Assembly (NCBI GenBank): GCA_000002445.1
Contig: CM000207.1
Location: 2,784,001-2,848,000 of the forward strand
Direction of reading: 5' to 3'
DNA from: Trypanosoma brucei
Lineage: Eukaryota
DNA length: 64,000 nucleotides
Under the pieces are notes generated by a model. That model ran no database searches, was not told where the DNA came from, and saw nothing but the letters and a program-made list of their open reading frames with translations. Made by a program: the position numbers and the translations under genes. Shown here piece after piece: positions 18,426 to 50,629 of this stretch (the stretch's first letter is position 1; every line of letters starts with the position of its first letter).

Positions 18426-18651
18426 CACCCTGGCGATGCCGGCCACCTCAACGTGGTGCCAGGGTCCAGTACCCCGTATCATCGGGGGAAGCCAAGAGGC
18501 AGCAGCGTTCCTTTCATGGTGAACACTGCTGTGCTCCGGCTACGGCATCATACAGCACAGGGATCAGTAGCGTCTTTCTGGGACACCGTTCTTCATTTGT
18601 CGGTCCCTGGGCACGTGCCAGCGTGCCATCAGCAGTATCATCCGCACTAAG

Positions 18652-19077
18652 ATGCTGCTGTTCGGTGACATGGAAGAGAATCCCGGCCCGTCGTTGCGCG
18701 GGATGCAGTGGAACTGCGCCGGGCTATCTCAAGGAAAGAGATTAGCACTCCACAAAACCCTTGTTGATGAGCGGATCGCCTTTTTTCTGTTGAGCGAGAC
18801 AAGGATGACGCCTGGAGAGGCGGCTTGCTTTAGCGTTGCTGGCTACCAACATCACGGAATAGCTCGTAACTGCAAAGGAGGTGGTGTATCAATACTAGTG
18901 AGGAAAGACCTACCAGTCGAGACCTGTATGGCCGTTATTGGTCGCATTGAACAAGTGCATGCAACAATTCACCTTGCACGTGGAAAGGCGCTGACTGTCA
19001 CGTCGGCATACATCCCACCAAAACACACTTTCACGGCAACTGACCTAGATACGCTTCTGACAACTGACAGTGCTTAG
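18652..19077 (+). CDS. ingi ORF segment: N-terminal 2A-like peptide plus AP-endonuclease domain (terminated by TAG)
   Basis: MLLFGDMEENPGPSLRGMQWNCAGL…LLSETRM… matches the APE N-terminus E…N..G motifs. It continues in another frame at 19108-19491 (…SLYSPDSDHH…). Confidence 0.8.
   Translation: MLLFGDMEENPGPSLRGMQWNCAGLSQGKRLALHKTLVDERIAFFLLSETRMTPGEAACFSVAGYQHHGIARNCKGGGVSILVRKDLPVETCMAVIGRIEQVHATIHLARGKALTVTSAYIPPKHTFTATDLDTLLTTDSA
18667..18690 (+). other. 2A-like 'DxExNPGP' ribosome-skipping motif (DMEENPGP)
   Basis: It sits directly upstream of the APE domain. An identical motif is present in copy 2 at 49878-49901(-). Confidence 0.75.
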
Positions 19078-19487
19078 CTCATCGGTGCAGATGCTAACGC
19101 ACACTCGTTGGCATGGGATCGCGCGAGCCCACCAAATACCAAGGGTGAAACCCTCACACAGTGGTGCATTGACAACCAGTTTCTGGTCTGCAACACTGGT
19201 CAGTGCACCAGGTACGCGCGCCACCACGGGGAGTCCACCCTTGATGTGACACTGTCAAGAAATTGCACAGTGTACACGTGGATATCGCTGTATTCTCCAG
19301 ATAGCGATCACCATAACATATTTTTCGACGTTATCGTTGGAGACGACACAGATGCACTGAGTTGCCCGCGGCTTCGAAAGCCCATGTACGCATGGCTAAA
19401 AGCTAACTGGAGGATTTCCGTCTCAAGGTTGACGAGCTCTGCAGGAAAATTGGTAGAGAGAAGAATGTCAACACTCTGGAACAGAAA

Positions 19488-48866: not shown

Positions 48867-49490
48867 CGCAAGTCTGGAGCATAGTGTGCTTCACCTCTTT
48901 TTTGTGGTACGGTCCAGGATCTGCTTACGCGTGGCTACCAACATTTCCCTTCGGTGGGAGGATCCGCATCCAGCGATCTCTTCATCGAGTTTCGCGAGCT
49001 CAGGTGTCCAATGTGGTGGCGTTGCTCTGCAGCTACGGGGGACGGAGACCTTCGTCGCAATGCGGATGGCGGAGCTCAATTTCTGTTCCAGGGTGTTGAC
49101 ATTCTTCTCTCTACCAATTTTCCTGCAGAGCTCGTCAACCTTGAGATGGAAATTCCTTCAGTTAGCTTTTAGCCATGCGTACATGGGCTTTCGAGGCCGC
49201 GTGCAACTCAGTGCATCTGTGTCGTCTCCAACGATAACGTCGAAAAATATGTGATGGTGATCGCTATCTGGAGAATACAGCGATATCCACGTGTACACTG
49301 TGCAATTCCTTGACAGTGTCACATCAGGGGTGGACTCCCCGTGGTGGCGCGCGTACCTGGTGCACTGACCAGTGTTGCAGACCAGAAACTGGTTGTCAAT
49401 GCACCACTGTGTGAGGGTTTCACCCTTGGTATTTGGTGGGCTCGCGCGATCCCATGCCAACGAGTGTGCGTTAGCATCTGCACCGATGAG

Positions 49491-49916
49491 CTAAGCACTG
49501 TCAGTTGTCAGAAGCGTATCTAGGTCAGTTGCCGTGAAGGTGTGTTTTGGTGGGATGTATGCCGACGTGACAGTCAGCGCCTTTCCACGTGCAAGGTGAA
49601 TTGTTGCATGCACTTGTTCAATGCGACCAATAACGGCCATACAGGTCTCGACTGGTAGGTCTTTCCTCACTAGTATTGATACACCACCTCCTCTGCAGTT
49701 ACGAGCTATTCCGTTATGTTGGTAGCCAGCAACGCTAAAGCAAGCCGCCTCTCCAGGCGTCATTCTTGTCTCACTCAACAGACAAAAGGCGATCCGCTCA
49801 TCAACAAGGGTTTTGTGGAGTGCTAATCTCTTTCCTTGAGATAGCCCGGCGCAGTTCCACTGCATCCCGCGCAACGACGGGCCGGGATTCTCTTCCATGT
49901 CACCGAACAGCAGCAT
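49491..49916 (-). CDS. ingi copy 2: 2A-like peptide plus AP-endonuclease segment
   Basis: MLLFGDMEENPGPSLRGMQWNCAGL… is nearly identical to 18652-19077. Confidence 0.8.
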   Translation of the reverse strand: MLLFGDMEENPGPSLRGMQWNCAGLSQGKRLALHKTLVDERIAFCLLSETRMTPGEAACFSVAGYQHNGIARNCRGGGVSILVRKDLPVETCMAVIGRIEQVHATIHLARGKALTVTSAYIPPKHTFTATDLDTLLTTDSA

Positions 49917-50629
49917 CTTAGTGCGGATGATACTGCTGATGGCACGCTGGCACGTGCCCAGGGACCGACAAATGAAGAACGGTGTCCCAGCAAGACGCTG
50001 CTGATCCCTGTGCTGTATGATGCCGTAGCCGGAGCACAGCAGTGTTCCCCATGAAAGGAACGCTGCTGCCTCTTGGCTTCCCCAGATGATACGGGGTACT
50101 GGACCCTGGCACCACGTTGAGGTGGCCGTAATCGCCAGGTGTTTGGCTTGTCTCTGCCTGTTCCGAGAATTAGTTACCTATGGTGGAGGACGAATTTTTA
50201 GGTGAATTAAGAAAAACCATACCAGCTGTATTTTTTGTGCCAGATTGCCGTGTATCCATGATAGAGTCATGAGTCGAAACTATGAACTTTTCAAAGAATA
50301 TATGAGAGCATATAAACAGTGCGGCGGTTAGTTGCCTTCCACTCCAAATCCTTATTTGCGTCAGTTTCAAAGACTGTATTTCCCCTGTGTATACTCGACT
50401 GTTCCTCTATATCATTTCATCTCCATCATATCCTTGTGTACGATTGTGCACACAATCATAACGTTAGTGTTTGAACCTGGAAAACTTCTATACTCTATCT
50501 TTCTTCTCCTTTTTCCATTTTATTTAGCAATATTCCACATCATCACTTCAAATCCATTATGCATACGATTACTCTCGTTGCACACATACCATTGTCTTAA
50601 CTGCATTTTTTGTGTTTTTCATTCATTTT

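Follow-up and report, generated by a model that had tools for sequence, protein, structure and literature searches.

In a 64,000-nucleotide stretch of Trypanosoma brucei DNA (the window; contig CM000207.1, positions 2,784,001 to 2,848,000), two inverted ingi copies lie exactly at the two points where the polarity of a VSG array switches. Inversion of the 21.2 kb between them by ingi-ingi recombination is plausible and unproven, and it is tentatively preferred here as the best explanation of the locus. That some ingi-mediated recombination took place at the locus is probable.

Inverted ingi copies and the polarity of the VSG array

The orientation of the array was mapped using tblastn, Pfam, the VSG 3'-UTR 16-mer and the 70-bp-repeat motif. 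The features of the window are as follows:

about 1781-2794, 5128-5220 and 11670-12572, minus strand: VSG pieces of the left array, from the tblastn, Pfam and motif map
7902-9356, minus strand: intact B-type VSG of 484 aa, representing the left minus array
13856-17493 (to about 17500), plus strand: 5'-truncated DIRE (degenerate ingi-related element) in the left array, outside the repeat pair
17828-18427, minus strand: VSG 3' fragment, with the 3'-UTR 16-mer at 17828-17843 and a coding remnant to 18427, adjoining the 5' end of copy 1
18428-23677, plus strand: ingi copy 1, full length (5250 bp), defective, with an A10 tail at 23668-23677
23678-44890, VSG polarity plus: block between the ingi copies, 21.2 kb, opposite to both flanking arrays; candidate inverted segment
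23680-26449, minus strand: LSU rDNA fragment of about 2.77 kb (Rfam LSU model positions about 600 to about 2620), antisense to copy 1 and directly after its poly(A)
26451-26463, plus strand: A-rich tract (A9 T AAA) at the distal rDNA boundary
26464-26852, plus strand: orphan VSG C-terminal end, followed by a 3' UTR and then by a 70-bp-repeat motif at 27099
28333-29817, plus strand: VSG cassette 1, with A-type N-terminal and C-terminal domains and without ATG or signal peptide
31732-32879, plus strand: VSG cassette 2, pseudogene pieces, with the 16-mer at 32946
34844-36388, plus strand: VSG cassette 3, an intact VSG of 514 aa
39423-40196, plus strand: VSG cassette 4, B-type pseudogene pieces
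42439-43353, plus strand: VSG cassette 5, a VSG-like ORF, pseudogene
43684-44890, plus strand: 5' half of a plus cassette, a 70-bp-repeat motif and then 1.2 kb of upstream-type sequence without a VSG, adjoining the 3' end of copy 2
44891-50140, minus strand: ingi copy 2, full length (5250 bp), defective, with an A8 tail at 44891-44898
50141-50678, minus strand: 5' half of a minus cassette, a 70-bp-repeat motif (50663-50678) and then 0.52 kb of upstream-type sequence, adjoining the 5' end of copy 2
50912-63290, minus strand: right minus array, with a VSG 3' end and pseudogene at 50.9-51.5k and pieces at 54586-55538, 59964-60980 and 62664-63290

Only two ingi copies occur in the window, and array polarity switches only twice, in each case at one of these copies. 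The pattern described in the initial annotation was reproduced by the orientation map: all VSG sequences outside the pair are minus, and the five cassettes and the orphan 3' end inside it are all plus. Both switches fall mid-cassette within the silent array. At 18427, 44890 and 50141 the ingi ends directly adjoin VSG pieces; at the fourth junction (23678) the neighbour is rDNA. Copy 1 does lie, as had been claimed, between a VSG 3' fragment on its 5' side and LSU rDNA on its 3' side, and the flanks of each copy are indeed unrelated in that they cannot be joined into one pre-insertion sequence. Long, similar inverted repeats at the breakpoints, opposite polarity between them and switches at the repeats are what inverted-repeat recombination is recognized by, and all were found. 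The complementarity of the half-cassettes (two 3' halves at copy 1, two 5' halves at copy 2) was considered as independent support and dropped, as it is an automatic consequence of the orientations.

Because the plus-strand DIRE sits within the left minus array, the AT skew changes sign at about 13.7k and not at 18.4k. This element has 26-37% amino-acid identity to ingi residues 573-1590.

Copy 1 begins at 18428 with the Pr77-type sequence CCCTGGCG. The start of copy 2 reads (A)CCTGGCG at 50140/50139, its initial C being changed to A or absent. Both copies start (C)CCTGGCGAT..CCGGCCACCTCAACGTGGTGCCAGGG, as does every outgroup copy, and carry the Pr77 / 79-bp signature. Copy 1 matches the TALE target GCCGGCCACCTCAAC (PMC12975129) perfectly, and copy 2 matches it at all but one position. 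Pfam found APE (Exo_endo_phos), RT (RVT_1) and RNase H (RNase_H) domains in the copies, and both carry the 2A motif DMEENPGP (NPGP). With the length of about 5.2 kb, the Pr77 5' end, the coding order 2A-APE-RT-RNase H-zinc finger and the poly(A), the traits of Tbingi (ingi4 subclade) are present. A tblastn search with the intact 1656-aa ingi protein covered residues 1-1656 in both copies; the match is split over three frames, and both copies are therefore defective.

The homology between the copies ends exactly at the element ends. Their identity is 97.3-97.4% (blastn of 18429-23683 against 50139-44885: 97.4% over 5259 columns with 5 gaps). Both are colinear over 1-5250 with annotated T. b. 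equiperdum and gambiense ingi at 92.7-96.3% identity, and copy 1 aligns end to end with T. b. equiperdum copies at 95-96%. An identity of 97.3% is unexceptional for ingi, as unlinked T. b. equiperdum copies reach up to 97.8%.

The limits first assigned to the elements (18426, 23683, 44890 and 50139) were correct to within a few bases, and their spacing, given as 21 kb, was measured at 21.2 kb. Two statements on their similarity were too generous. The amino-acid identity over the RT ORF, put at about 97%, is 96.2%; the 2A/APE N-termini, called identical, both have the 2A motif, and the first ORF agrees at 138 of 141 positions.

Divergence between the two copies

The 142 differences between the copies were polarised against six outgroup ingi copies. 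Copies 1 and 2 have 68 derived variants in common, among them a premature stop and a frameshift, and are sisters. Private differences number 49 and 56 in the two copies, corresponding to a private divergence of about 1% per copy, and they are interleaved along the elements. The initial annotation had looked to a base-by-base alignment for a switch that would mark the crossover. No significant switch was found in the polarised differences (best change-point P = 0.26), in a test that has power for chimerism only where the parental copies were of different age or subfamily. Mapping of a crossover from the pairwise difference profile alone was abandoned as uninformative in principle. Uniformly spread differences, which had been thought to count against an inversion, would not refute it, since a reciprocal crossover leaves the positions of the differences unchanged.

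One pair of tracts stands out by its similarity:

21904-22550, plus strand: near-identical tract in copy 1 (ingi positions 3477-4123), with a shared 1-bp frameshift near 22010
46017-46663, minus strand: near-identical tract in copy 2 (ingi positions 3477-4123)

These 646 bp contain 2 differences between the copies, against 23-31 from each copy to the outgroup copies. With outgroup diversity as the null, the significance is only moderate (P = 0.018), and the tract is a candidate gene-conversion or crossover region. Stretches without any difference between the copies are as long as about 300 bp, more than enough for homologous recombination. The mosaic divergence fits gene conversion between copies 1 and 2.

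The differences between the copies also bear on the possibility that the block is an assembly artefact, i.e., that the segment was misoriented, or that both orientations coexist within the population and one was reported. Misorientation is a well-known error for segments that lie between long inverted repeats, and the orientation is not checkable within the window. However, about 140 differences are spread along the whole length of the copies, which means that reads or clones entering from the unique flanks can be assigned unambiguously. An explanation of this kind is regarded as highly improbable.

Element junctions and the rDNA flank

A 12-bp target-site duplication (TSD) is the rule for Tbingi insertions (PMC3820030). 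TSDs were sought for own and cross pairings of the flanks, by eye and by ungapped matching against random and intergenic nulls. The same method recovered a perfect 12-bp TSD in one control ingi copy (L004) and a near-perfect one in another (L001). For the two copies studied here, the absence of a recognisable TSD noted earlier was confirmed by this search. Nor were reciprocal TSDs above chance found when the 5' flank of copy 1 was paired with the 3' flank of copy 2, and the 5' flank of copy 2 with the 3' flank of copy 1. The best cross candidate pairs the 5' flank of copy 2, ACAAGCCAAACA, with ATAAATCAAACA past the rDNA A-tract; the match is 9/12, with a chance P of about 0.03-0.05 before correction for multiple testing. 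Three other candidates were rejected as being at chance level: TAATTCT, 26 nt upstream of the copy 2 5' end, against the copy 2 3' flank; TA(G/A)TTC, common to the sequence after both tails; and a 7/12 match between the own flanks of copy 1. The missing own TSDs argue against pristine insertion junctions, not against the identity of the elements as ingi. Since none of the four 5'/3' flank pairings has a TSD, at least two parental junctions are absent from the window.

These junctions weigh on the proposal that the strand switches came first and that ingi copies later inserted or accumulated there. Mobile elements of the L1Tc/ingi clade do gather in strand-switch regions (PMC4035085, PMC1868937), and T. 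b. equiperdum chromosome 1 has an independent tail-to-tail pair of full-length ingi copies that are 97.7% identical. As at this locus, ingi/DIRE occur at polarity changes in the trypanosomatid strand-switch regions, and rDNA lies beside ingi/DIRE (PMC1868937, PMC4035085). Those regions are core Pol II or centromeric and contain AT-rich repeat arrays (PMC1868937, PMC4035085), whereas the switches here are in a silent VSG array, mid-cassette, and bounded by a matched inverted pair. Moreover, simple target-primed (TPRT) insertions should show 12-bp TSDs that would be readable at about 1% private divergence, and neither copy does. The mid-cassette position of the switches means that an earlier rearrangement with precisely those breakpoints is still required, and both insertions would need to have hit the breakpoints exactly. 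That the switches preceded the elements is considered improbable.

The sequence after copy 1 consists of A10, 2.77 kb of rDNA, A9TAAA and then target sequence. An Rfam LSU match extending to 26845/26873 was discarded as spurious: true rRNA homology begins at about 26449, and the AT-rich portion consists of the C-terminal coding sequence and 3' UTR of a VSG. The rDNA at 23680-26449 must derive from an rDNA locus. The A-rich tract at 26451-26463 is either a second poly(A) tail, and hence a sign of 3' transduction, or native rDNA. Around a unit of ingi and rDNA, the candidate TSDs are in the chance range, with 9/12 matches to the 5' flank of copy 2 and 8/12 (non-adjacent) to the 5' flank of copy 1. 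No rRNA was found in the 10-kb flanks of two T. b. equiperdum ingi loci, including near the chromosome 1 pair.

In LINE-1 3' transduction, read-through of the element's own poly(A) site takes downstream flank to a new site. The order found here is the same, i.e., element, own A-tail, foreign flank, second A-tract and target. Unlike in established LINE-1 cases, the candidate TSD is weak (9/12) and the A9 is no more than a candidate for an untemplated tail. Literature searches found no report of ingi 3' transduction.

The rDNA flank shows that these elements have been involved in one non-local event at least, which raises the prior for multi-step ectopic histories. In such a history at least two events imported all or part of the plus block, together with the ingi end that adjoins rDNA, without any local inversion. 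The events would be ingi-ingi recombinations or segmental gene conversions with partners elsewhere in the genome, for instance other subtelomeres or an rDNA-proximal ingi. This would be in keeping with the lack of a TSD in every flank pairing and the missing parental junctions, and with 2.77 kb of sequence of rDNA-locus origin at one junction. At the centromeric strand-switch regions of T. brucei, rRNA arrays have ingi and DIRE elements as neighbours (PMC1868937). In addition, copy 2 has a run of 12 private variants at ingi positions 4452-4738, which points to a patch derived from an ingi lineage that the panel does not include. However, at least two independent events must then have happened to leave inverted sister copies exactly at both switches, a geometry that a single local crossover explains as well. 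Import in several steps is judged unlikely, though it deserves serious attention.

Proposed history and significance of the candidate inversion

In the preferred reading, local inversion, two sister non-autonomous ingi copies would have lain in inverted orientation within a once uniformly minus subtelomeric VSG array. Ectopic homologous recombination between the 5.25-kb copies would have flipped 21.2 kb comprising the rDNA fragment, the orphan VSG 3' end and the five cassettes, and the crossover would have left reciprocal chimeric elements at both polarity switches. The same pairing would also have given non-reciprocal exchange (gene conversion), producing the mosaic divergence. We infer both the crossover, hence the inversion, and the co-oriented ancestral array.

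Un-inverting the block restores uniform polarity. Of the cassettes reconstructed in this way, one is short of about 1-1.5 kb of VSG and the other is short of about 2-2.5 kb, replaced by 2.77 kb of rDNA. Because the un-inverted cassettes are short and one junction carries rDNA, more than two clean insertions and one crossover is needed. At least one further event must be involved, for example acquisition of the rDNA flank, deletions at the target sites or earlier ingi-ingi exchanges. The ingi-mediated inversion put forward in the initial annotation is partly supported, by the geometry, the absence of own TSDs, the unrelated flanks and the mosaic divergence; reciprocal TSDs, continuous un-inverted targets and a crossover switch did not emerge.

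Inverted copies of transposable elements are known to give inversions by non-allelic homologous recombination, as with Ty in yeast, L1 and Alu in primates and IS in bacteria. Inverted repeats at both breakpoints, the lack of own TSDs, unrelated flanks and a reversed middle are common to those cases and to this locus. In contrast to them, no reciprocal exchange of TSDs is seen here, and un-inverting gives no clean pre-insertion sites. Recombination of ingi/RIME has already been credited with rearrangements in T. brucei, between T. b. gambiense and T. b. brucei (PMC2854126). The element family and the organism group are the same as here; the examples seen in that publication are indels in chromosome cores, whereas the present candidate is an inversion in a VSG array. 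An ingi-flanked inversion within a VSG array was not encountered in the literature searches.

Exact look-ups of the VSGs at 34844 and 7902 in a contig collection gave no match. A homologue search with the VSG at 34844 found only a T. b. rhodesiense protein of 92% identity. The VSG at 28333 has a 99% protein match (P0040), which is known only from Metaclust, without contig context.

A bolder proposal is that the inverted pair is an active switch whose repeated crossovers flip the five-VSG block back and forth, and that the 8-kb unit of ingi and antisense LSU rDNA, with an A-tract at each of its two boundaries, is a case of 3' transduction, not documented before for any trypanosomatid retroposon. 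This combination is rather improbable. If the switch were active, the orientation of the block would vary from strain to strain, or even between members of one population, and silent VSG cassettes would change polarity relative to the telomere and to neighbouring donors. If the transduction were real, ingi would be able to bring host sequence, kilobases at a time, into the antigen archive.

The inversion itself, if it took place, would be a new example of a textbook mechanism, with the rDNA-flanked ingi end as the less expected piece. Such a mechanism is already established, as is the part that ingi plays in rearrangements, so views of antigenic variation and of transposon rearrangement would be unchanged. 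The locus would nevertheless show, at a place that can be mapped, how a pair of retrotransposons has reshaped the silent VSG archive, and its four ingi junctions, which can be scored by PCR or long reads, would serve as a marker for the rate at which array polarity changes between strains.

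VSG polarity and the inverted ingi pair

The sequence in the window is a subtelomeric VSG array of the Trypanosoma brucei group. The larger ORFs encode VSG N-terminal domains of types A and B as well as VSG C-terminal domains (Pfam), and their top external matches are VSGs of T. b. rhodesiense and T. brucei. Orientation was mapped from tblastn hits of the VSG ORFs in the window, a 3'-UTR 16-mer and the core motif of the 70-bp repeat.

Features of the window (window positions)
~1.8-2.8k, 5.1k, 7902-9356, 11.7-12.6k, 17828-18427; all minus; VSG pieces of the left array
7902-9356; minus; intact-looking B-type VSG, 484 aa, amid pseudogenes
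13856 to ~17500 (17493); plus; 5'-truncated DIRE (degenerate ingi-related element) inside the left minus array
18428-23677; plus; ingi copy 1, full length
23680-26449; minus; LSU rDNA fragment, ~2.77 kb, antisense to copy 1
26464-26852; plus; orphan VSG C-terminal end between the copies
28.3k, 31.7k, 34.8k, 39.4k, 42.4k; all plus; five VSG cassettes between the copies
34844-36388; plus; intact-looking A-type VSG with C-terminal domain, 514 aa, amid pseudogenes
44891-50140; minus; ingi copy 2, full length

All three markers uphold the polarity map of the initial annotation, minus outside the ingi pair and plus inside it, and the observation itself is confirmed. The VSG piece at 17828-18427 adjoins the 5' end of copy 1. 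At the right end of the block between the copies, a 70-bp-repeat motif at 43684 leads into 1.2 kb of upstream-type sequence, which reaches the copy 2 3' end. Minus polarity returns to the right of copy 2, where 0.52 kb of upstream-type sequence precedes a 70-bp-repeat motif at 50663. The window has two ingi copies and two polarity switches in all, and they coincide exactly. This is unlikely to be due to chance, as are the inverted orientation of the copies and the non-joinable flanks of each.

Neither intact-looking VSG had a 100%-identity match in the protein or contig collections searched; the nearest match to that at 34844-36388 is a T. b. rhodesiense VSG (92%). The ORF at 28333-29817 (plus) has no ATG and no signal peptide. 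The sole near-identical protein is P0040, found in Metaclust only and with no contig recorded for it. It matches the ORF at 490/494 residues, is of equal length and starts at the same valine; evidently another T. brucei data set carries an annotation of this pseudogene-like model. The DIRE (13856-17493) retains RT and C2H2 zinc-finger remnants, with 26-37% amino-acid identity to ingi residues 573-1590. Because it is a plus-strand element inside the left array, the AT skew flips early. It stands where one would expect the 11.7-13.4k VSG cassette to have its 70-bp repeat and upstream region.

Descent and divergence of the two copies

The copies are 97.4% identical end to end (blastn; 5259 columns, 5 gaps; overall 97.3-97.4%), and their homology ends at the element ends. 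Both start with a Pr77-type signature, encode the 2A motif DMEENPGP, an APE endonuclease, RT and RNase H, and finish in short A-tails (A10 in copy 1, A8 in copy 2). The near-identical inverted pair of the initial annotation therefore stands, but its identical N-termini do not, the N-terminal ORFs agreeing at 138/141 residues. An overall identity of 97.3% is ordinary, since unlinked T. b. equiperdum ingi copies reach 97.8%. Each copy aligns over its full length with the fetched T. b. equiperdum and T. b. gambiense copies at 95-96%.

Judged from their sequences, the copies are sisters. They have 68 variants in common, ranging over ingi positions 72 to 5048 and absent from 5/5 full-length outgroup copies. 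Among these shared variants are a premature stop (window 19075-19077, CC to TT at ingi positions 647-648; near 49491 in copy 2) and a 1-bp deletion (near window 22010, ingi position ~3583; near 46555 in copy 2). These lesions would imply either a single defective progenitor or homogenisation between the copies. Each copy also carries private frameshifts, and with both shared and private lesions the two are therefore non-autonomous.

The divergence is unevenly distributed. Within ingi positions 3477-4123 the copies differ at 2/646 sites, a tract over which each shows 23-31 differences from the outgroup copies and the outgroups 22-30 among themselves (scan statistics, P=0.0005 under a uniform null or 0.018 under a panel-weighted null). 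Within positions 4401-4800 they differ by 6.5% (P=0.001). Copy 2 has 12 private variants in succession (ingi positions 4452-4738, window 45403-45689), for the most part G>A and C>T, together with a TA insertion. The stretch has the look of a patch converted from an ingi lineage outside the panel, or of clustered mutation. The mosaic fits gene conversion in patches, with exchange between the two copies in some of them and other ingi lineages as donors in the rest. Because inverted-repeat conversion is mechanistically linked to crossovers, this gives indirect support for a physical interaction of the copies; it is no proof of an inversion.

A pairwise difference profile alone is blind to a crossover, because a reciprocal exchange leaves the difference positions unmoved. 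The 142 differences were therefore polarised with six outgroup ingi copies: copy 1 has 49-50 private differences and copy 2 has 56-59, and 33 are polymorphic in the panel. Private differences of both kinds are intermingled along the entire element. The switch that had been proposed to mark the crossover did not emerge, the best single change-point being non-significant (P=0.26).

Flanks of the copies

Target-site duplications (TSDs) of 12 bp are normal for Tbingi insertions (PMC3820030), and inspection of ingi flanks at two control loci revealed a TSD at each, perfect at L004 and near-perfect at L001. As first reported, neither copy in the window has a TSD: own-flank pairings gave no match above chance. 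Nor did the reciprocal pairings of crossed flanks, which are the prediction of a crossover between two clean insertions. When ingi and rDNA are taken as one insert, the copy 2 5' flank ACAAGCCAAACA (50140-50151) agrees at 9/12 positions with ATAAATCAAACA (26459-26470), directly past the rDNA A-tract. Of random 12-mers, 3-5% match equally well, and three mismatches are too many for elements with only ~1% private change; the pairing may serve as a weak lead only. Two chance-level repeats were also seen: TAATTCT, present both 26 nt upstream of the copy 2 5' end and right past its A-tail (50140-50175, 44879-44890), and TA(G/A)TTC directly past both tails.

Immediately past the copy 1 tail lies LSU rRNA sequence (Rfam), which bears out the rDNA fragment noted earlier and shows it to be minus-oriented. 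On inspection of the alignment, real LSU homology begins no earlier than about model position 600, with the edge at window 26449. The Rfam extension to 26845/26873 was rejected as spurious, the AT-rich part being VSG C-terminal and 3'-UTR sequence. The distal rDNA boundary is A9TAAA at 26451-26463. The order at 23668-26470 (ingi A10 tail, 2.77 kb of antisense LSU rDNA, A9TAAA, VSG C-terminal end) is the layout predicted if a read-through ingi transcript had carried an rDNA flank along by 3' transduction, and the locus is a candidate for such an event. A literature search, outside which most subscription-journal papers lay, found no paper on 3' transduction by ingi.

Inversion and its alternatives

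Inversions through recombination of inverted transposable-element copies are textbook events (Ty, L1/Alu, IS elements). One crossover between resident inverted ingi copies would yield the observed geometry. A local ingi-ingi inversion is favoured because of this parsimony and the evidence of sequence exchange between the copies, and its chances are put at slightly under even. The inversion reading of the initial annotation is thus partly supported: the geometry and the exchange speak for it, and the reciprocal TSDs, the continuity of the flanks and the crossover switch do not.

Un-inverting the block restores polarity but not sequence continuity. One rebuilt cassette (70-bp repeat at 43684, 1.2 kb, ingi, last ~175 VSG codons) is ~1-1.5 kb short, and the other (70-bp repeat at 50663, 0.52 kb, ingi, rDNA, VSG C-terminal end) ~2-2.5 kb short; cassettes elsewhere in the window measure 3.2-3.9 kb. 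The two half-cassettes at copy 1 are both 3' halves and the two at copy 2 both 5' halves, a pattern that was dropped as independent evidence, being the automatic outcome of the orientations.

The local inversion is further tempered by the ingi junctions, 4/4 of which have no partner in the window. One of them consists of rDNA, and the copies therefore also had at least one non-local event, which could be an exchange with an rDNA-proximal ingi (such copies exist; PMC1868937), 3' transduction, or target-site deletions. A multi-step ectopic ingi-mediated assembly is rather unlikely, ranking second. Strand-switch regions gather retroelements (PMC4035085, PMC1868937), and the absence of TSDs weighs about equally against local inversion and against ingi insertion into pre-existing switches; the latter is improbable. 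Assembly error or heterogeneity is more improbable still, and other explanations take up the remainder.

Rearrangements in T. brucei have already been attributed to ingi/RIME recombination (PMC2854126), and the locus would be a fresh example of this known type of event. The literature search, with most subscription-journal papers beyond its reach, found no paper on an ingi-bounded inversion inside a VSG array. An inverted ingi pair independent of the window's is present on T. b. equiperdum chromosome 1 (L008; CM010672.1, 74.9-99.9 kb):

L008 9991-15245; plus; first ingi copy
L008 16897-22127; minus; second ingi copy

These full-length copies lie tail to tail, 1.65 kb apart, and are 97.7% identical. 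The pair is downstream of an LRR-protein gene, and its first copy has a TSD.
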